Positions 41,209 to 64,000 are shown, numbered from the stretch's first letter. The stretch is 64,000 nt of DNA from an uncultured bacterium (GCA_949294085.1 CASFFX010000006.1:40256-104255), one strand, 5' to 3'. Notes: generated by a model from the sequence alone, not told the origin. Numbers and translations: made by a program.

Positions 41209-41952
41209 ATGAATAAAAAGTTTATAGCGAAAATATCGTTAGCGGTGTTACTTCTGAGCGTACTGCTGCCGGCCAGCGCCTTTGCCAAAAAGACGCGCCT
41301 GGTGGCCGTCAGCGCCGATGTGGTGGAAATCAGCGGAACCATGCAAAGCGTCAAAGGGTTTTCGTGGAACCAGCTGTTTGATTTTGAAGAAGCCACGATT
41401 CCCGGCATTTTGTCTTTGGGCGAATTTGAACGCAAAACGGCCGTTACGACGCGTCTTCGTTTGATGGAGACGGAAGGCCGCGCCCAGGTGCTTTCCAACC
41501 CGAAAATTGTTACCTCTTCCGGCAACAGCGCCAAAATTACCGTGGGCGGCAAGGTGCCGATACCGATTGTAAACAACCAGGGGGTTGGCTCGCAGCTGGA
41601 AGAATACGGTATTTTGCTCAACGTATTGCCTACGATTATTCCTGAACGGAACAACATTATTGACCTGCAGGTGCAGCTGTCCGTTTCCACGGTGGACTAC
41701 TCCAGAACCGTGGTAATCGGTACGGCGACGGCGCCTTCGTTCACCAACCGCGACGTGGAAACCCATGTGGAGCTCAACAGCGGGGAAACGCTGGTCATTG
41801 GCGGGCTGAAAAGCAGTTCGCGCAACGTGTCCGAGGACCGCGTGCCGTTTTTGGGCCGCATCCCGCTGATTGGTTTGTTGTTCAAAAACAAAGACGTAAC
41901 GGAAGAACAACGCTCGTTGTTCCTGTTCATTACGGTTGAAATTGTGGAATAG
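41209..41952 (+). CDS. Secretin (RcpA/CpaC-type), core domain only
   Basis: G.AQVLSNPKIVT.SG..A.I.VGG.VP, YGILL.V.P, VELNSGETLVIGGL, VPFLGRIPLIG.LFK. Confidence 0.88.
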   Translation: MNKKFIAKISLAVLLLSVLLPASAFAKKTRLVAVSADVVEISGTMQSVKGFSWNQLFDFEEATIPGILSLGEFERKTAVTTRLRLMETEGRAQVLSNPKIVTSSGNSAKITVGGKVPIPIVNNQGVGSQLEEYGILLNVLPTIIPERNNIIDLQVQLSVSTVDYSRTVVIGTATAPSFTNRDVETHVELNSGETLVIGGLKSSSRNVSEDRVPFLGRIPLIGLLFKNKDVTEEQRSLFLFITVEIVE

Positions 41953-54520: not shown

Positions 54521-54697
54521 ATGCACGCAAAAAGGCCGGCGGCCGGGCGCAATGCTCCCACCGCGGGGCAGGCTACCATTGAATATGTGCTGATGCTTGC
54601 CACGATTGTGGTGGTGCTGTCGGCCTTTTTGACGGCTTTTCACACCGATATTGTGCGCTTTTTCTTCACGTTTATCGGGCAGCTGCTTTCTTCGTAA
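54521..54697 (+). CDS. flp: Flp-type pilin (58 aa, absent from ORF track)
   Basis: MHAKRPAAGRNAPTAG|QATIEYVLMLATIVVVLSAFLTAF...; TAA 54695-54697. Confidence 0.72.
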   Translation: MHAKRPAAGRNAPTAGQATIEYVLMLATIVVVLSAFLTAFHTDIVRFFFTFIGQLLSS

Positions 54698-54700
54698 ACT

Positions 54701-55813
54701 ATGCACAGGATGAGGCCTATTTTCCGAAAATTGCAAGACCGACAGGCGCAAGTGTTGCTGCCTGCGGTTTTGTTGGCGCCTATTTTTGTGCTGGTTATCT
54801 ACCTGTTGTTTGAAACGGCCAAAGTGTCCATGACCAAGGTCCGCCAGCAGTTTGCGCTGGACAATGCAGCCTACTCCCAGTTGTCCTCGACGAGTACGTA
54901 CCTCAACGCGGTGGCCATGGTCAACGGGCCGCTGCCTTACCGCGTGATGCTGTATTACAAGGACCAAAAGTTGAACCCTACCGAGGTGGCCGCGGCTTCC
55001 GGCAAACAGCCCATCAGCATTTTTGAGCTTTTTTATCACGGCGGCGGTGTGCCGTCTATTGGGCCGGATTACGATACGGGGATTAATAATCCTCCGCCGG
55101 CGGCTTCGCAGGACTGGGGTCTGCATTATGACCCGAATAACCAGGAATTTCCACGCGGCGATTGGGAAAAAGAACAGCCGCGCGAGCCGGATTCCGAAAC
55201 GTGGGTGCCGGTGATGAGCAAATCGTTGGTCAACGATTATTATTTCCCGGCGCTTCGCTATGGAACGGTGGTGATTCAAAACTATTTGGAAACGTATGTG
55301 CGCACGGGGTCTATTTATGAATCTCAGACGTATGCTTACCAGGCCACCAGCAAAAACGCCATTATGTTCCGCGAGGCATATTATTTGAATACGAACGATT
55401 GTAAAAAGTCGGACTGCGCGCGGCAAAGCGCTTCGCAACTGCAGCGATATCTTACTTTGTCCACCAAACCGTTTGAACTGGATAAAGTGCGGTTTTATGC
55501 GTCCGATTCCGGCTTAAGCGGCGAACACGGCGGTGCTATTAACTTGGATTTGTCGATGGTGGAAATGATTAAAACCAAGCTTTTCCAATTTGCTTATCTG
55601 GATTCCAGCTCCCGCAACAAATTGCGCACGCTGGGGCGCGGCGTCGTGCTTAAACAGCCGTTCAAACTGCCGCGGAACCATTTTAATATCAGTTTGGAAC
55701 AAAAATATAAACCCTATGTGCGCAATACGGCGGTGCTTTCCTGCCCGCGCGGCAGCAACAACTGCGTGTGGCCGGACCCGCTGCCCAAATACAGCGTAAC
55801 GTTGGACCCGTAA
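54701..55813 (+). CDS. TadG-like large minor pilin / tip protein
   Basis: RKLQDRQA|QVLLPAVLLAPIFVLVIYLLFETAKV...QQFALDNAAYS matches the Tad N-terminal motif; large C-terminal globular domain. Confidence 0.65.
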   Translation: MHRMRPIFRKLQDRQAQVLLPAVLLAPIFVLVIYLLFETAKVSMTKVRQQFALDNAAYSQLSSTSTYLNAVAMVNGPLPYRVMLYYKDQKLNPTEVAAASGKQPISIFELFYHGGGVPSIGPDYDTGINNPPPAASQDWGLHYDPNNQEFPRGDWEKEQPREPDSETWVPVMSKSLVNDYYFPALRYGTVVIQNYLETYVRTGSIYESQTYAYQATSKNAIMFREAYYLNTNDCKKSDCARQSASQLQRYLTLSTKPFELDKVRFYASDSGLSGEHGGAINLDLSMVEMIKTKLFQFAYLDSSSRNKLRTLGRGVVLKQPFKLPRNHFNISLEQKYKPYVRNTAVLSCPRGSNNCVWPDPLPKYSVTLDP

Positions 55814-56372: not shown

Positions 56373-56401
56373 TTGACAAAGGGGTGTTTTCTACCTATAC
56401 T
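56373..56401 (+). promoter_or_regulatory. sigma70-type promoter of the paralog array
   Basis: TTGACA (56373-56378), 17 bp, TATACT (56396-56401). Confidence 0.8.
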
Positions 56402-56494
56402 AACTAATAGAACGAATAGGGAACTCTGTGTTTGAGCGTGCCCCCGGGCACGGGTCAACAAGAGTAGTTTTTATTATTATGTTGAGGGGTTTTT

Positions 56495-58222
56495 ATGTTT
56501 AAGCTGAAACCGGGAAATGTGTTTCAAAAAATCAATAAAATGGACCGCAAGCAAGCCTATACCTTGGGGGCAATTGTGGTGGTGTGCTTTGTGGCTCTGT
56601 TAACGCTGGCTTCGTTTTTGGGCAATGCGGAAGACTCGTCTTTTGAAGATTTTAATACCCGCGGCTACGATTTGGCGCAAATGCCGTTTGTAAACGACGA
56701 GGCGGAGCAGTATTTGCTGGCGTCTAAATATCCGGATATGCAGGGCAATAATTCCACCATGCTCTATTCCGCGGCCGACAAGCAGGCCCGCCAACAGGAA
56801 GATTCCGCCCAAGCGGCCGAAGAAGCCGCCGAAGAAGCAACCGAGGCGGGCGCAACGGACGATACGTATTACGGCGGCGGATACAGCGGGGGCGGTTATA
56901 CGGGCGGCGGTACGCCGCGCGCGCCCACGCAGGTGGGACAGCTGAGCAGTGCCAGCATGAGCCGTTCCGGCGGAAGCGGCGTAAACACTTCGTGGGGGGC
57001 TCCCCGCGGGGATTTTTCGCCGTATAAAAGCCAGGAAAAGGGCTCCGAAATTCCCACTCAAACGCAACTGCGCAATCAGGACGCGCGCCGTGCCTTGGCG
57101 CAGTTTGCGCAAGCCAGCCGTGCGGCGGCCGGATTGAAAGACGGCAAAGGCGCCAACGCCAAAAGAGCGTTGATGGGCGCCAATGTGCGCGGCAGCGAGG
57201 CGTTTACGGACTCCGGCGTGGATTTGAGCAAAACGGCCGGCCTGACGCTGGACACCAATGCCCCGGTTTCCACGGCGGATTTGGGCAATTTGGACAAGGC
57301 CGTGTCGGACGCGGCGGCCGCTGGAAAATCCAATAAAGACAAAGCGCAGGAAAACTACCGCCAAAGCATGGAAGAACGAATCCGCGAGCAGTTGTTTAGC
57401 GGGATGATTAATATGGGGCTGCAGGCGATGGGCAATTTGTTAAACCAGGGGGTCAGCGCGCTGCAGGGAACCATTGCCGGCAATCAGGCCCTGAATAACA
57501 GCTTGGAAAGTTCCGGCGCGCAATTGGCCGATGCCCAACTGACCAACGCCAATAAAGATTTGTTAGTTGCCCAATATGGGCAGGATAAGGTGGACGCGTG
57601 GATGGCCCAAAACCCGAACGGGCGCGTGTGGCAATGCCAGGCCGATTTGTCCGGCTCGGGCACGACGGGCGGAACCATTAGCCCGGTTCCCACCAAGCCG
57701 GAGATGCCCCAGCAGAGCGCGTTTGTTTCCCAATCGGGCTCCAGCAACGAGGGCGGCGTAGTTACCTTGGGCGCGCAGGATCAGGCCCGCTACGACATGG
57801 CGATGGAGGAATACAACCGTCAAAATGAAGCGTATAATGCGTATCAAAACGCTTCGGACGAAGAAAAACTGCAAATCCGCACCGACCGTATGGAGGCCAA
57901 TATCCAGGCGCAGAAGCAGGCCGTTAAATCGTTTAGCGACCAGTATGTGCGGTATCAAAAAGCGCACAAAACGGGCGCGGCGTGGGAAAGCGCCGTGGCC
58001 GCCAAAAACGTGGCGCGGACGGCCTATACGGGCAAATCGGTGATTGATACAACGAAACTTACGACGAAAAAAAATACGTCCTCTGCTCCAACGGGCGGTG
58101 CCTCAACCACGTACAAAACACCCAATGATTTCCATACGCACACGCAGTATGAGGATTACGTAAAAGGCTTGAATGTGGGTGAAAAGGAAGAAAAAAGTTT
58201 GCTTAACATCCAGAGTTTATAG
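56495..58222 (+). CDS. Membrane-anchored low-complexity hypothetical protein (array member 1)
   Basis: N-terminal TM (AYTLGAIVVVCFVALLTLASFL), Gly/Ser/Ala-rich linker, LSSASMSRSGG motif; GAGGGG RBS. Confidence 0.8.
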   Translation: MFKLKPGNVFQKINKMDRKQAYTLGAIVVVCFVALLTLASFLGNAEDSSFEDFNTRGYDLAQMPFVNDEAEQYLLASKYPDMQGNNSTMLYSAADKQARQQEDSAQAAEEAAEEATEAGATDDTYYGGGYSGGGYTGGGTPRAPTQVGQLSSASMSRSGGSGVNTSWGAPRGDFSPYKSQEKGSEIPTQTQLRNQDARRALAQFAQASRAAAGLKDGKGANAKRALMGANVRGSEAFTDSGVDLSKTAGLTLDTNAPVSTADLGNLDKAVSDAAAAGKSNKDKAQENYRQSMEERIREQLFSGMINMGLQAMGNLLNQGVSALQGTIAGNQALNNSLESSGAQLADAQLTNANKDLLVAQYGQDKVDAWMAQNPNGRVWQCQADLSGSGTTGGTISPVPTKPEMPQQSAFVSQSGSSNEGGVVTLGAQDQARYDMAMEEYNRQNEAYNAYQNASDEEKLQIRTDRMEANIQAQKQAVKSFSDQYVRYQKAHKTGAAWESAVAAKNVARTAYTGKSVIDTTKLTTKKNTSSAPTGGASTTYKTPNDFHTHTQYEDYVKGLNVGEKEEKSLLNIQSL

Positions 58223-58245
58223 ATTTTGGTTTTTAGGAGGAATTT

Positions 58246-59832
58246 ATGAAAATTTTGAAGCGGTGGCTGAACCGAAGCGGCAAAATTGCCCTCTCCGCGG
58301 CGCAAGCGGTGGGGCTTTCGGCCGTAGTCGGGGTGGCGGGCATTGCCGCTTGGCAATATCTGGACACTCCTTCCGATAATACGGCTTTCAACCTGGGTTC
58401 CAACTATGACCGGGGGGAAGTGGTGTACGTAACGGGCGCTTCGGGCGGCTCGTACGGCGCCAACGGGGAAGTGCAATCCGCTTTTATGGCAAAGCCCTCT
58501 AAAGCCATAGAAATGACGGAAAAATTTGCTTTGGCTCAAAAACGGGCGGACGAGTACGACGATTCCGTCGTGATCCCCGCACCGGAGCCTTCCAGCCCGC
58601 AGGCCTATCAAATGGGCGGCACCGAAGGGTTAGGCATGGGCGCCAACCGAGCCAACGAAGAAAAATGGAACCAAAATCCGATGGCGGCGGCCCAGCAGAC
58701 CCTGACGGGTGTTACGGACGCCATTGCCCGCGCCCAGCAACAGGCCCAACAGCAAGCCCAGCAACAAAGGGCGGCCCAGGGCCAGGCGGGAGCGGCAGGC
58801 ACATTGGCCAGCGCCCAGCGCGATTGGAGTTCTTCGGCCGCCACGAAAGGACTTTCCGGCGGCGGCGGAAATGCGTTTAATTCCTCTTTCGTAGTGCAGA
58901 ACAGCCAAAAAGGCGGCAAAGGCGCCGCGACGGGAAATGCTCCGTCCGATCCGGCTGCCGTAATGAAACAATTTCAACAGCAGGTGGCTTCCGCCCAGGA
59001 AGGCGCCCGCTTGCGTGCCCGTGCCACATTTGGGGCGGAAAATGAGCTTTTGGCCAGCCGTTCGTCAGAATTGGGCAACGCTCGCACTTCGCGGGAAGGA
59101 AAAGATTTGGAATTTATCCGCAAACGCTCGGCCGATGCCGCCAAAAACAAAAACCGCTCGGCCAACGAAGGCGCCCGTGCCTTTTTGGCCAGCACGAAGG
59201 TATCGGGCGGTATTACGGTAACGGGGGACAATGTTACCACCGGCCAGGGCCAGGCTTCTAAGGATTTTGAATCGGCCACGCAGTCCCAGTTGCGAGGCAT
59301 ACAGTCGTACGTGCAGGGGGATATGGAGGAAGAAGCCCTCACCCGCAAACGCGACAGAGACGCTATCCGTACTTGGATGTGGGTTGCAATTCCGACGGCT
59401 TTGGCGGCGATGGTCTCTATTCCGATTGCCATTGCTTCGGCGGGCTGGTTCTTTGGCGTGGGATACGCCTTGGCGGCCGCTATTGCGGCGGTGGCGTTAG
59501 TCCCGGTCTTGGGGCTGCTGTCTGTTAGTGTTAAGTACGCCAATAACTACGGGGGATCGTCTCTTTCCACGTGGGGTTCTGTCATTGCCGGTATTTTGAC
59601 CGTTGGGCTGGGGCTTGCCTTTATCCCCGGGGCTGGTTTTACCGCCAAGCTGGCTACGTGGGCCCAATTGTTGGTGGGCGGTGCGGCAGCGGGCTTGGGC
59701 GCTGGGGCCGCGTGGTGGGCTACGTCCGCCACGAAGGACGCTACACTGGATCAAGCCGCTTCCTTGAATATTGACAACGGCACCGATACGCAGGGCAAGG
59801 GTGCGTCCGGCAGTCAGGGACAGACGAAATAG
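58246..59832 (+). CDS. Hypothetical protein with prepilin-like N-terminus and hydrophobic C-terminal domain (array member 2)
   Basis: RWLNRSG|KIALSAAQ leader, GLGMGANR, KRSADAAKNKNRSANEGARAFLAS, 3-4 Gly/Ala-rich hydrophobic helices; AGGAGG RBS. Confidence 0.8.
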   Translation: MKILKRWLNRSGKIALSAAQAVGLSAVVGVAGIAAWQYLDTPSDNTAFNLGSNYDRGEVVYVTGASGGSYGANGEVQSAFMAKPSKAIEMTEKFALAQKRADEYDDSVVIPAPEPSSPQAYQMGGTEGLGMGANRANEEKWNQNPMAAAQQTLTGVTDAIARAQQQAQQQAQQQRAAQGQAGAAGTLASAQRDWSSSAATKGLSGGGGNAFNSSFVVQNSQKGGKGAATGNAPSDPAAVMKQFQQQVASAQEGARLRARATFGAENELLASRSSELGNARTSREGKDLEFIRKRSADAAKNKNRSANEGARAFLASTKVSGGITVTGDNVTTGQGQASKDFESATQSQLRGIQSYVQGDMEEEALTRKRDRDAIRTWMWVAIPTALAAMVSIPIAIASAGWFFGVGYALAAAIAAVALVPVLGLLSVSVKYANNYGGSSLSTWGSVIAGILTVGLGLAFIPGAGFTAKLATWAQLLVGGAAAGLGAGAAWWATSATKDATLDQAASLNIDNGTDTQGKGASGSQGQTK

Positions 59833-59840
59833 GAGCTTTT

Positions 59841-60122
59841 ATGGCAGAACAAAAACAACAAACGGCGGCTCCTGTTCAGGTATCCCGTAAAGTAGTGCTG
59901 ATAGCCCGAACAGTTTTGGCCGTGATTGTGGTCATTTGGATAGCGGGAATATTTTATTTTCACTCCCAAATGAAAGCCACGGAACAGGAAATTTTGAAGC
60001 TGCGCCAAAGACGCCAGCAAGAGGAAGAACTCCAGCGGCGGGAAGCTATTTACCGCCGGGCCGCCATGCAGCAAACGGCGGTGCAAAACGGCGTACAGAA
60101 TGCGGTGGACGCGTTGAAGTAA
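59841..60122 (+). CDS. Small single-TM coiled-coil hypothetical protein
   Basis: TM VLAVIVVIWIAGIFYF followed by a charged helix; AGGAG RBS. Confidence 0.7.
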   Translation: MAEQKQQTAAPVQVSRKVVLIARTVLAVIVVIWIAGIFYFHSQMKATEQEILKLRQRRQQEEELQRREAIYRRAAMQQTAVQNGVQNAVDALK

Positions 60123-60141
60123 AAACGCAGGGAGAAAACGT

Positions 60142-61635
60142 ATGAATTGGGTCAAATTATTAAAGAACATATCGGGTAAACTCGTCATGGGCGTTCCCCA
60201 ATTGTTAACCATCGGCGGCGTGGGTATGCTGGCCATTTACGGCGCATACCGCACCGATGACGCTTTGGCCAGCAAGGAACCGCCTGTGCGCACGCTGTCG
60301 GGCATTTCTGCTTCTTCGGCCTATCAGGGCTTGCAGAAAAAAGACGGCTTGCTTACGTCCATTAACATCAAAGATTCCCTCAACCAAATCGCCACGCCGG
60401 AAGAGCGGGCCGCGTTGGACGGCAATTCCCCGTCGGCCGACAACTTTGGCTTGGATAAAGTGGGCAATATTCAAAATGTTTCGTTTGGTGCGGCGGCGGA
60501 AACGTCTCCCACCGACGGTTTGGGCATGGGTGCCAACCGGACGGACATTACGGAAGGGGGCTCTTCTAGCGTACGCGGTGCCGGCAGTCAGCCGGGCGTA
60601 ACGCTGCCGGGCAATTTGGGGCAGGCGGGTGCCGCCGCTTCCGGCTCAACTGCCACGCTGGCGCCGGCTTCTATGGCGCGGGCGTCCGGCAATGCGTTTA
60701 ATGCCGCGGCCGGGGCCATTGGCGGATCGGCTGCCGGCGGAGCCGGTACCCGTTCGGCCGCCAGCAGTGCAGCCGCGGGCGGATCTGCTGCCAGCGGGGA
60801 AGGCTATCAATTTTCGGGCGCGATGCCCAGCGGAAGCAACATGGTGTCTGCCTTTCAGTCTCGGCGTGCCAATTCCACTTTTGTAGCGGGCGGGCGCGAT
60901 TCTTCTTCGGCCCGGGCCAGACGTTCGTTCCGCGAGAAAAATGAGTTAAAAGACATTTCCAAACGCTCGGCCGACGCCGCGCGGAACCAAAATCGTTCCG
61001 CCAACGAAGGCGCCCGCGCTTTTTTGGCCAGCACCCGCAATTCGGGCGGCTTGCGCGTGGAGGGCGGCGTGGAAACGACCAGCACCGGCTCGGCTGATTT
61101 TGAAAATCCGACCAACCAAAAGCTCAAAGCCGTTGGAAGCTGGGTCCAGCAAGAGGACGAGTTTGCCAAGAAACAAGAAAAAGCGCGCAAACGCTTGATG
61201 TGGATGGCGTTGTCGCTCTTTGCATTGACGATTGGCATGATCCCCGCGGTATATCATTTGGTGTCTAAGGGAAAACAAGCGGGTCTGTTTGGATGGACTT
61301 TTGTTGCGTGGGGTATCATCTTGGCTGGTGTAGTGGGTGCTTATGCCGCTACGGTGTTGGGCTTTGCGGTGGATTACCAAACGAAGTATAACGGCAATTT
61401 CTTGCCGATTATGGGCTACCTCCTTTCTGCAGGCTCGATGGTGGCGATGGCGTGGACGGTCCTGTCTGCCTTGAAGTCGGGCGGAACCTCTTCAGAGGCG
61501 CATAAGTTGTTTATGAAGAAATCGGTTGGTGCCGCGAAGAGTGTGGGTATGATGGGCCTGACGACCGGCGGGAAAGAGGCGGTCAATAAATTAATGGAAA
61601 AAGACGCTTCTGCTTCCCAATCTTCTAAGAAATAA
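60142..61635 (+). CDS. Paralog of 58246-59832 (array member 3)
   Basis: LLKNISG|KLVMGVPQ leader, GLGMGANR, KRSADAARNQNRSANEGARAFLAS, divergent hydrophobic C-terminus. Confidence 0.8.
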   Translation: MNWVKLLKNISGKLVMGVPQLLTIGGVGMLAIYGAYRTDDALASKEPPVRTLSGISASSAYQGLQKKDGLLTSINIKDSLNQIATPEERAALDGNSPSADNFGLDKVGNIQNVSFGAAAETSPTDGLGMGANRTDITEGGSSSVRGAGSQPGVTLPGNLGQAGAAASGSTATLAPASMARASGNAFNAAAGAIGGSAAGGAGTRSAASSAAAGGSAASGEGYQFSGAMPSGSNMVSAFQSRRANSTFVAGGRDSSSARARRSFREKNELKDISKRSADAARNQNRSANEGARAFLASTRNSGGLRVEGGVETTSTGSADFENPTNQKLKAVGSWVQQEDEFAKKQEKARKRLMWMALSLFALTIGMIPAVYHLVSKGKQAGLFGWTFVAWGIILAGVVGAYAATVLGFAVDYQTKYNGNFLPIMGYLLSAGSMVAMAWTVLSALKSGGTSSEAHKLFMKKSVGAAKSVGMMGLTTGGKEAVNKLMEKDASASQSSKK

Positions 61636-61644
61636 TTGAATATG

Positions 61645-61678
61645 CGGAAGGAACGCCTGCGGGCGTTCCTTCCGTTTG
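61645..61678 (+). terminator. Perfect 13-bp hairpin, probable terminator
   Basis: CGGAAGGAACGCC-TGCG-GGCGTTCCTTCCG followed by TTTG. Confidence 0.7.
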
Positions 61679-61686
61679 TGTGAAAA

Positions 61687-63213
61687 ATGAAAGAACCGAA
61701 AGAACAGCCACAGCCGGAAGAGCAAAAACCTTGGGTGTTGCTCTGGCAAGAAATCAAACGTTTGTCCTGCTCCAAAAAAGCGTGGGCGGCGGCGGTGGTG
61801 TGCGTGCTGCTTTTGTTGTTTACGGGCGTGGTGCCGGTGGGAAAAATTCCGCTTTTGCGCCGTTTGGCGTGGGCTATGGGATACACGCCGGACGAAACGC
61901 AACATATTTCCTTCTTAAAAGCCTTGCTTAGCTGGAACGAGCATGCCAAAATTATGCGTGGGGAACTGCCGGACCCCAACGAAACAAGCATATTTGGAAA
62001 CGATGGGGGGCTGATGTCCTCGCAGAAGCGGCTGGAGCGCGAAAAAGATTCCAGCTTGATTAATATGCGGGCCGTCAATGCCGCATTGTACAAGCAAGGC
62101 AAACTGGGCGATTTGCCCACGGGCGCTTATTATACGGTGGATATTGGAGAAGGGAAAAAACCGTCCGACGTACAGGTAACCGGCAATTCCGTAACGACGC
62201 AGGCCGGGGCCGCCAAAACGGGCGAGGTGTATTTCGGGACAGACGCTTCCGTCCAGGCGCGGGACCCGAAAGACGGATTTAATTCTATTGGGGCGCTTAA
62301 AAAAATTGCCAATCCGCACATCGCGGGCACATCCAAAACAGATTGGCTGGACCGTTTGGTGGATAAGGCCACCCGTTCCGATGCCGGCTTGGAAAACATT
62401 GCCAAAGAACTAAAAACCGGCAGTATGCTTTCGCAGTTAAATCCCATTACGGATATCGGCAATCACAAGGCCCAGCGCGATATGTATTATGCGTGGCTGA
62501 CGGGGATGAGTTCCCGCCGTACGCCCAATGTCGTGCTGAAAAAAACCTTGGCGGCGGCCGGTTTTAACGGGGCGGAAATGCCCAAAAAAGTGTTTGATTC
62601 TTCCGGGTTTTCGGGTATTGGCATTAATCAAGATGATGTTGTTTCCGACGTGGAAAATATTCAAATCCGGCTGAAAAATGAAAAAGAGTGCGAACGCGTT
62701 TTGAGTACATCGGGCGAAAATTTGGTCAACCAGCTGCAAGCGGCCAAAGAAGGCATTAATGTGTTGTCGGCTTCGTTTCCCAAAACGTGTGATGACATCA
62801 ACGGAAATTTTACAAACCGCTTGGCGGCTTTGCGGAATCAATGCGAACAAATTAAGCTGGACTATAATGACTTGGGCACTTTTTGCGGCGTTACCGTAAA
62901 AGCCGGGCGGGAAGGCACCTGCACGACCAACAATCTGCAGAGCCGCTACGACCAATATGCCGCCTATTGTACCCAAGAAAGGCAAAAATGCGCCGCTTTA
63001 ACTACACCCGAAGAGCAGCAGGCCTGCCTGGCCGGATTGAAAAAAGCCGCCGATTACGAAGAAGGCGACTGCCGGGAAAAAGGCTGCTCGCAGGAAGGGG
63101 TGGAAAAATTAGTGGGCGGAACCTTTAACGTGGGCGTAAACGGCAAGGACGTGGACCCGTACGCGGGGGACTTCTTTCCGGAAGTGGATTGGGGGGCTAC
63201 CAAGCTCTACTGA
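61687..63213 (+). CDS. Membrane-anchored hypothetical protein with Cys-rich C-terminus (array member 4)
   Basis: TM AWAAAVVCVLLLLFTGVV; 10 Cys in the last ~180 aa. Confidence 0.8.
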   Translation: MKEPKEQPQPEEQKPWVLLWQEIKRLSCSKKAWAAAVVCVLLLLFTGVVPVGKIPLLRRLAWAMGYTPDETQHISFLKALLSWNEHAKIMRGELPDPNETSIFGNDGGLMSSQKRLEREKDSSLINMRAVNAALYKQGKLGDLPTGAYYTVDIGEGKKPSDVQVTGNSVTTQAGAAKTGEVYFGTDASVQARDPKDGFNSIGALKKIANPHIAGTSKTDWLDRLVDKATRSDAGLENIAKELKTGSMLSQLNPITDIGNHKAQRDMYYAWLTGMSSRRTPNVVLKKTLAAAGFNGAEMPKKVFDSSGFSGIGINQDDVVSDVENIQIRLKNEKECERVLSTSGENLVNQLQAAKEGINVLSASFPKTCDDINGNFTNRLAALRNQCEQIKLDYNDLGTFCGVTVKAGREGTCTTNNLQSRYDQYAAYCTQERQKCAALTTPEEQQACLAGLKKAADYEEGDCREKGCSQEGVEKLVGGTFNVGVNGKDVDPYAGDFFPEVDWGATKLY

Positions 63214-63217
63214 CCCC

Positions 63218-63245
63218 TTGAAAAAAGCGCATTTAATTGTATAAT
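63218..63245 (+). promoter_or_regulatory. Putative sigma70 promoter
   Basis: TTGAAA, 16 bp, TATAAT (63240-63245). Confidence 0.6.
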
Positions 63246-63422
63246 AGAAATAAGGACATTTGGATAAGGAAAGTTGTTGCGGAGTGGGAAACCAGCTTCG
63301 AACAACGAATTTCTTTATTATGCAAAAGAGATGTACGGGAAAAGATTTTCAGACGGTGTGAAGGCTTTTCCCCGGGTTTGAAAAAACCCAAAAGGGCAGT
63401 TTTATTTTAATAGGAGGCTCTT

Positions 63423-64000
63423 ATGCCAGAGGAAAAAAAGAAGGACAGTTTTACCTTTAGCGATAAGATTAAAAACAGCAAGCCTGCTGCTTTTAAGTCT
63501 TTTGCTAATCGTATTTCCTCCAAAATCGGGAGCGACGGCAAACCTAGAAAGACTCTCTTTGAGAGAACGAAAAGGGATGCCCCGTTCTTCATTGCCGCTT
63601 TGGTGGCGCTGTTGCTGCTGCCGTTTTTGTATAAATACAGCGGGCAAGTAAATGAAGAACCTATGGTTACCCCCGGAAGCGAGGAATCCATATTCGATCC
63701 CGAACGGTACGGTTTTGATACGGCTACCGGGGATCCGGAAGGCCAAATTGCTCAGCTGGCCGGGCGCGATCCTTTAAGCTTGATTAAAGGGTTGAACTCG
63801 GAGGAAGAAGAGCCGTCGGGCGATTATCCGATGCAGGATTTTGATGATCGCAGCGGCTTGGGCGATGACGCTTCTTATTCCGACAATGTAACGGAAGAAC
63901 ACAACACCAATATCTACAAGCAAAACGCGGCTCCGGCCACGCGCGCGGCGTTCCGCCGGGCGGCTACCAAGATTAATCCGTTGGCTTCGGCCGGGCTTAC
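63423..64000 (+). CDS. Partial CDS (5' end), membrane-anchored hypothetical protein (array member 5)
   Basis: AGGAGG RBS, ATG 63423, open to the window end: MPEEKKKDSFTFSDKIK...APFFIAALVALLLLPFLYKY...TKINPLASAGL. Confidence 0.8.
   Translation, partial: MPEEKKKDSFTFSDKIKNSKPAAFKSFANRISSKIGSDGKPRKTLFERTKRDAPFFIAALVALLLLPFLYKYSGQVNEEPMVTPGSEESIFDPERYGFDTATGDPEGQIAQLAGRDPLSLIKGLNSEEEEPSGDYPMQDFDDRSGLGDDASYSDNVTEEHNTNIYKQNAAPATRAAFRRAATKINPLASAGL

Follow-up and report, generated by a model that had tools for sequence, protein, structure and literature searches.

A conserved block of envelope-protein genes beside a Tad locus in Elusimicrobiaceae

Architecture of the encoded proteins

The window analyzed here is a 64,000-nucleotide (nt) stretch of DNA from an uncultured bacterium (GCA_949294085.1, CASFFX010000006.1:40256-104255; contig C6:40256-104255 of a 12-contig genome of 1.5 Mb). 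At its 3′ end lie six co-directional open reading frames (ORFs) on the + strand, separated by short gaps: five large genes, which we call A to E, and one small gene, s (Table 1). An original prediction, made from the sequence of the window, described the six as an array of paralogous, membrane-anchored, low-complexity proteins directly downstream of a Tad locus, and proposed an expanded, lineage-specific family of pilus-associated envelope proteins or Tad substrates. All six ORFs were present with the claimed strand and starts, as was the Tad locus directly upstream. The short strings on which the prediction drew were also found in the translations: TQVGQLSSASMSRSGG and ARRALAQFAQASRAAA in A, GTLASA...GGGGNAFN in B, TATLAPASMARASGNAFN in C, KRSADAA in B and C, AQRDMYYAW in D, and TKINPLASAGL in E. 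Reading the genome beyond position 64000, as had been proposed, completed E as a protein of 1284 amino acids (aa) and placed the genes for a 580-aa TPR protein and then ksgA 3′ of it. Genes A-E are real, as intact orthologs occur in the same order in 10 other contigs.

All six products begin with a basic N terminus and one hydrophobic helix, as judged by hydropathy. These N termini fit uncleaved N-in/C-out signal anchors, a predicted topology that would leave the bulk of each protein in the periplasm. The prediction of a single N-terminal hydrophobic segment did not stand for B and C, which have three to four extra C-terminal transmembrane (TM) helices, seen by hydropathy and as a bundle in an AlphaFold2 (AF2) model. 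Long Gly/Ser/Ala/Gln-rich linkers, which had been ascribed to the whole set, are present in A, B, and C (39-53% of residues in rich windows; proteome background for such windows, 0.365) but not in D, E, or s.

For the gene A product, we predict an N-in signal anchor, a conserved juxtamembrane block, and a disordered Gly/Ser/Ala/Gln-rich region containing conserved short motifs (aa 140-260); its helical C-terminal half is hypervariable. B has the N-terminal anchor, a periplasmic region of ~340 aa that is predicted to be mostly disordered, and the C-terminal membrane bundle of three to four helices. The architecture of its paralog C is the same, and the two share the conserved core KRSADAAxNxNRSANEGARAFLAST..SGG. 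In the AF2 model of B, made from a 41-sequence alignment, the mean predicted local distance difference test (pLDDT) score was 57. Half of the residues, corresponding to the Gly/Ser/Ala/Gln-rich parts, scored below 50, and residues about 355-460 formed the helical membrane bundle with pLDDT values of 87-97. The small protein s has a single TM helix followed by a charged tail that is probably helical.

D and E look globular, and their cysteine content fits an oxidizing extracytoplasmic location. D, which has an N-terminal anchor and is not of low complexity, contains 12 cysteines, six of them invariant in the C-terminal third. E contains 18 cysteines and begins with an invariant basic cytoplasmic tail of 52 aa (DSFTFSDKIK), followed by the TM helix, an acidic linker, a conserved motif region that extends to PWWWDMMK (about aa 330), and ~950 aa of variable, cysteine-containing globular domains. 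When residues 326-1284 of E were modeled with AF2, mean pLDDT was 70.8, and the final ~370 aa scored ~90. In this C-terminal domain (residues about 910-1275; window-equivalent positions about 66150-67250), some Asp, Asn, Arg, Tyr, and Lys residues are invariant. Its model has no Foldseek match in the PDB or BFVD, so the domain may represent a novel fold or else an enzyme-like domain that has diverged very far. Conservation across the set is concentrated in the cytoplasmic tails, TM helices, juxtamembrane segments, and short motifs, and the distal halves are essentially unalignable.

Table 1. Coordinates of the genes and predicted elements, counted from the first nucleotide of the window
Feature	Position	Strand	Description
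Gene A	56495-58222	+	575 aa; TM helix about 24-42
Gene B	58246-59832	+	528 aa
Gene s	59841-60122	+	93 aa
Gene C	60142-61635	+	497 aa
Gene D	61687-63213	+	508 aa
Gene E	63423-64000 in window	+	first 192 of 1284 aa; ORF ends at window-equivalent 67277
Promoter-like site for A-B-s-C-D	56373-56401	+	TTGACA-17-TATACT; 11/12 consensus match
A-leader hairpin and U-run	hairpin 56423-56465; U-run 56468-56472	+	between promoter and start of gene A
Promoter-like site for E	63218-63245	+	TTGAAA-16-TATAAT; 11/12 match
E-leader hairpin	63273-63306	+	minimum free energy z-score -5.2; 14 conserved pairs, 2 compensatory
Tad secretin	41209-41952		247 aa; Pfam Secretin domain, residues 86-247
Third Flp-type pilin gene	54521-54697		58 aa; AG|QATIEYVLM; between LuxR-type regulator and TadG-like gene

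The prediction had recognized no known domain, and this held in library scans, in PDB sequence searches, and in fold searches with two AF2 models. Scans of the six proteins and their family alignments against Pfam, NCBIfam, PHROGs, and PADLOC returned nothing at or near threshold, and searches of PDB sequences with the family profiles gave no match for A, B/C, D, or E. Matches of the A profile to F-BAR proteins (E 0.14) were discarded as reflecting coiled-coil composition, and s gave only sub-threshold matches of the FliL/GspM type. Foldseek searches with the E model (residues 326-1284) against the PDB and BFVD and with the B model, which is mostly of low confidence, against the PDB returned best E values of 0.06-0.3 with TM-scores of ~0.1, that is, no fold match. 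We found no description of the A-E genes in the literature.

The sole recurring library signal came from DUF2207 (PF20990, DUF2207_C), which resembles B and C in having TM helices beside Gly-rich low complexity. Weak DUF2207_C matches over the TM region occurred in 14 of 41 B/C family members (best E 2.2e-4), but the window's B scored 12.8 bits against a gathering cut-off of 33 bits, and we do not assign it to this family. Matches to VirB10, TrbL, or TonB, which would have spoken against the original prediction, were looked for with negative results. Like the TrbL/VirB6 and VirB10 components of type IV secretion systems, the block encodes polytopic and bitopic membrane proteins with low-complexity regions in an array. 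However, TrbL (PF04610) matched one of the 41 B/C members at E 0.019, VirB10 matched none of the 41, VirB4 and VirB11 genes are absent, and there was no match among PDB sequences. The only ATPase encoded near A-E is a TadZ-TadA fusion.

Relatedness and distribution of the genes

Whether the block is an array of paralogs depends on which genes are compared. By sequence, B and C are true paralogs that belong to one unnamed Elusimicrobiaceae family. They match by blastp at 4e-25 and share 31% identity over 553 columns, with conserved blocks; hhalign pairs them with a probability of 100 (E 5e-45), and reciprocal hmmsearch against all genome ORFs gave E values of 1e-18 to 1e-38. For the other genes, we compared family alignments of 11 sequences each, drawn from related loci. 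A aligned with C at E 2.8e-4 (hhalign probability 41%) and with E at E 1e-3 (21%); across alignments, these two comparisons ranged from E 2e-4 to 3e-3 and from 10 to 46% probability. Both fell exactly on the motifs quoted in the original prediction. With the alignments trimmed to the regions after the TM helix, A-C, A-E, and D-E each scored better than all 60 of their column shuffles, whereas A-B, B-E, and C-E were not significant against column-shuffled controls. The collinear alignments yielded three short motifs: L-x-SASM-x-R-x-GG, [YF]FG...AR, and AF-x-x-SG...G[LIM]x[LIV].

The motifs, which the prediction expected to be significant by profile alignment, thus beat column shuffles, yet unrelated ORFs score as high. 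Against a null of 400 real ORFs, the targets ranked third to ninth, with unrelated ORFs between them, and did not beat the top 1-2% of unrelated sequences. When the motif profiles were searched against all 12,344 genome ORFs with hmmsearch, only B and C found each other, and A and E were matched at E 0.5-2.9. Adding sister-genus sequences to widen the alignments did not raise the hhalign probability (10-21%). Gene D has no demonstrable relation to A, B, C, or E, and hmmsearch of all genome ORFs found no further A-E paralogs elsewhere in the genome. The description "paralogous array" is best replaced by one duplicated gene (B/C) and neighbors that share short motifs and are unrelated or at most very distantly related; these comparisons leave common ancestry of the neighbors possible.

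The top false positive of the A and E motif profiles was a DUF2207-like membrane protein with a poly-Gly/Ser/Phe C-terminal tail, encoded elsewhere in the genome (C8:16489-18855, - strand). It outscores the targets in the null and matches the A and E profiles solely through the poly-Gly part of the tail, illustrating how low complexity inflates profile-profile scores in this genome.

The part of the prediction that called the proteins lineage specific was borne out, as the families were found only in Elusimicrobiaceae. Among 61 sampled genomes of the genus to which the window belongs, 59 have B/C-type genes, arranged in tandem; at the sensitivity of that search, no such genes were found in 240 genomes from elsewhere in the Elusimicrobiota. 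The 142 homologs of B are all unnamed or "hypothetical" and come from sources listed as Candidatus (Ca.) Avelusimicrobium or Elusimicrobiaceae. A search of 1.84 billion proteins with the conserved N-terminal 360 aa of E returned only 146 clusters (50% identity). Those of full length (about 1000-1640 aa) have this N-terminal region in common, and the remainder are short fragments; the source names seen were all Elusimicrobiaceae, including Ca. Proelusimicrobium and Parelusimicrobium proximum.

To describe the block in relatives, we refer to loci L001-L010 from the window's genus, L012 from Ca. Proelusimicrobium volucris, and L013 from a bovine gut lineage. Over 10 loci, A-E evolve far more rapidly than the flanking genes, with a mean identity of 41-48% to the window copies. 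In the same loci, identity is 62% for the flanking TadG-like protein, 75% for the TadE-like protein, 70% for the TPR protein, and 85-94% for the regulators. A orthologs are present in 10 loci, with two further copies in L012 and one in L013. The position of s is occupied by a small TM gene in six of seven relatives with gene calls (it was not called in L004), and the gene at this position is longer in L012 and L013 (169-212 aa). D-like genes were found in L012 (E 4e-6) and L013 (E 4e-4). The region of L012 that corresponds to window positions 56495-61635 (L012:3659-7733) contains two A-like genes (454 and 331 aa), a single B-like gene, and a longer small TM gene, with D and E following. The claim of an expanded family applies to the duplication of B/C here and of A in Ca. 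Proelusimicrobium, but not otherwise: judged from gene content, expansion of the module has involved duplication of a different member in each genus (A with B/C in one, two A-like genes with one B-like gene in the other).

The surroundings of the block also differ between lineages. In the window, the Tad locus encodes two Flp-like pilins, a TadE-like protein, RcpC, a 247-aa secretin, the TadZ-TadA fusion, TadB, and TadC, followed by a TPR protein, sensor kinases, a LuxR-type regulator, a third Flp pilin, a TadG-like protein, and a TadE-like protein. Tad genes lie directly upstream of the array in all 10 loci of the genus and in L012. In L013, A-like, B-like, s-like, and D-like genes, E, the TPR gene, and ksgA instead lie behind glycogen-metabolism genes, with PALP, DUF4912, GH57, and one TPR gene upstream, and we detected no tad homolog within the 24-kb locus, which reaches ~5 kb upstream of the A-like gene. 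Two further loci, L011 and L014, have E without the rest of the set, flanked by a CNNM transporter gene on one side and rplM-rpsI on the other. After E come the TPR gene and ksgA in the window, in L012, in L013, and in most loci of the genus that extend to this point.

Predicted promoters and leader RNAs

The two best promoter matches of the region are in its two intergenic gaps, one upstream of A and one upstream of E. Both hexamers of the A site are invariant in the window and 10 related loci; TTGACA and TATACT are also found in L013, and a weaker TTGACA/TAGACT pair occurs in L012. In L006, L007, and L010, a terminator-like hairpin follows the stop codon of the TadE-like gene. For the E site, the -35 box is invariant in 11 sequences and the -10 box is identical in 10 of them, differing in L003. 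From these sites, whose activity is predicted, A-B-s-C-D and E(-TPR) would form two autonomous transcription units.

Between its promoter and start codon, gene A is preceded by a hairpin with a U-run. RNAalifold recovered 17 pairs in this structure, seven with compensatory changes, and in an alignment of 12 sequences from three genus-level lineages, eight pairs change on both sides. The fraction of alignment cells that were paired was 95%, compared to 87.5% in shuffles (0 of 500 reached the observed value) and 37-54% when the structure was slid along the alignment. This element is terminator-like and is probably a transcription attenuator of the A operon or else a candidate small RNA. The hairpin and U-run, which had not been annotated previously, also occur in L001-L010, L012:3560-3630, and L013:4790-4862.

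The E leader is 177 nt long (63246-63422). It consists of a conserved first hairpin (Table 1), TTTCTTTATTAT, and another two hairpins that vary, with a strong, perfect AGGAGG ribosome-binding site at its end. Neither leader matched an Rfam family, and nhmmer found no second copy of either in the genome.

Possible roles of the gene block

We tentatively read A-E as an autonomous, Elusimicrobiaceae-specific envelope module of inner-membrane-anchored periplasmic proteins that is not a demonstrable part of the Tad machine. The module would be expressed as two transcription units, each with its own sigma-70-type promoter and structured 5′ leader, and the hairpin and U-run of the A leader suggest control of that operon by transcription attenuation. 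The bulk of A, B, and C would be an intrinsically disordered Gly/Ser/Ala/Gln-rich tether with a few conserved short motifs, and B and C would return to the membrane through their predicted bundles of three to four helices. We infer that the membrane-proximal parts assemble together into an inner-membrane-anchored complex. The secreted TPR protein, whose gene follows E in three lineages, may bind these parts: short linear peptides are ligands of TPR folds, and the protein could plausibly recognize the short motifs. The disordered tethers and the variable distal domains would extend through the periplasm toward either the peptidoglycan or the outer membrane, and the complex could act as a scaffold or tether in the manner of TolA, TonB, or FtsN, though unrelated to them.

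This comparison concerns architecture and not family membership. Like TolA, TonB, and FtsN, the proteins described here are anchored in the inner membrane at the N terminus and continue through a long, flexible periplasmic linker of low complexity to a distal domain, an architecture that spans the periplasm. However, A-E contain no TonB_C, TolA, or SPOR domain (Pfam and NCBIfam, E≤1), their linkers are Gly/Ser/Ala/Gln-rich rather than Pro- or Ala/Lys-rich, and B and C re-enter the membrane. No ExbBD or TolQR partner genes adjoin the block, and PDB sequence searches gave no match; we therefore rejected membership in the TonB/TolA group.

Several points weigh against an autonomous module. The signal-anchor topology, as opposed to cleavage, is a prediction; low AF2 confidence is a mere proxy for disorder; and the scaffold or tether role and the TPR partnership are drawn from architecture and gene order only. 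The TPR gene is absent after E in L009. All of the loci come from one bacterial family and are not independent; the fixed gene order may thus be a product of shared ancestry and not of function. In the two genera with the best sampling, the genes for the third Flp pilin, the TadG-like protein, and the TadE-like protein lie immediately upstream of the array, which may therefore have a role in Tad. Finally, L013 is seen only to ~5 kb upstream of its A-like gene, and its genome may have a tad locus at another site.

A somewhat doubtful alternative, but one with real points in its favor, is that A-E are lineage-specific structural parts of the pilus machine, for example an alignment complex that spans the periplasm and joins the TadB/C-TadZA platform with the unusually short secretin. 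Like the Tad accessory proteins TadG, TadE/F, and RcpC, A-E have an N-terminal hydrophobic anchor and adjoin tad genes, which they do directly after Flp3 and the TadG-like and TadE-like genes in every locus of two genera. With so little sequence ahead of the Secretin domain (residues 86-247 of 247), the secretin could need a connector, and the invariant cytoplasmic tails of A and E could dock a conserved cytoplasmic partner such as the TadZ-TadA fusion. However, A and E each come with a separate promoter and leader, and in some relatives a terminator precedes A. The bovine gut lineage has an A-like, a B-like, an s, and a D-like gene together with E and the same A leader with no tad gene in the 24-kb locus, and E stands alone in L011 and L014. 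None of A-E matches a Tad, type IV pilus, or type II secretion family in Pfam or NCBIfam, including TadE, Tad, and RcpC, and none has the G|xxxxE processing site. Moreover, synteny inside one bacterial family is weak evidence. The proposal that the proteins are pilus-associated or Tad substrates draws on adjacency only, and that adjacency is not constant (present in two genera but not in L013, L011, or L014). A link to the pilus is not shown, since in a related lineage (L013) the gene set occurs without adjoining tad genes. The adjacency of tad here had been over-read and is not evidence of pilus function; what points to a possible coupling of A-E to Tad is lineage-specific adjacency only.

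A further reading, which we consider unlikely, joins elements of both. A-E, perhaps with the secreted TPR protein, would constitute an undescribed periplasm-spanning apparatus of Elusimicrobiaceae, made mostly of disordered tethers with short docking motifs and controlled by its own attenuator RNA, and where it abuts tad it would serve as a connector for the N-domain-poor 247-aa secretin. If true, this would be a new class of Tad alignment or connector complex.

It is rather improbable that the proteins, especially D and E, are cargo or surface adhesins that come off their anchors and are then displayed or secreted, by way of the Tad secretin or otherwise, with hypervariable distal domains facing the host or phages. 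Very fast divergence of the C termini while the anchors stay constant would fit such a role, as would the many cysteines at conserved positions in D and E, which are typical of extracytoplasmic folded domains, and the gut association of the organisms (sample sources). However, we recognized no cleavable signal peptide, lipobox, or sorting signal, and the long invariant cytoplasmic N-terminal tails favor retained anchors. B and C are predicted to be polytopic membrane proteins, and library and fold searches revealed no adhesin, Ig, lectin, or toxin domain or fold.

We give very little credence to the idea that B and C have class III signal peptides cut after Ser-Gly ("SG|K") by the Tad prepilin peptidase, making them pseudopilins or Tad-delivered membrane effectors: although tad genes are nearby and M1, G12, and K13, just before the hydrophobic stretch, are each retained in 90% or more of 41 family members, the defining acidic +5 residue (G|xxxxE[YF]) is missing, residue +1 is Lys, sister-genus B-like proteins read NRIGAVSK, likewise without Glu, and no TadE, Flp, or N_methyl Pfam match was found for B/C. 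The window's real Flp and TadE-like genes, in contrast, encode G|QTAVEY, G|QNTIEY, G|QATIEY, and G|QATTE. With no Glu at +5, prepilin-type processing of B/C was rejected on sequence, and membership of A-E in the Flp/TadE/TadF class III group was likewise rejected, as they have no G|xxxxE[YF] site and no Pfam Flp_Fap or TadE match.

Elusimicrobiaceae, common gut bacteria with small genomes, have received little study. Their conserved block of ~11 kb, amounting to 0.7% of the genome, that consists of orphan envelope proteins only and has its own conserved leader RNA is probably important for the cell surface. If the module is independent, it would be a new envelope scaffold built on disordered tethers; if it works for the Tad pilus, it would reveal how the periplasm is bridged in a pilus machine whose secretin is minimal.

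We also noted three features of the upstream Tad locus. In the 247-aa secretin, so little sequence precedes the Secretin domain that periplasmic N-domains would hardly fit. The third Flp gene is shorter than the default minimum ORF length and gave no match in Pfam; it was called in five of seven related loci with gene calls covering that position. Lastly, the longest TadE-like ORF begins with a GTG (position 55768), and its first 46 nt (55768-55813) lie within the 3′ end of the TadG-like gene. Because TadE-like orthologs are 177-201 aa long, the true start is probably an ATG ~14 codons downstream of this GTG.

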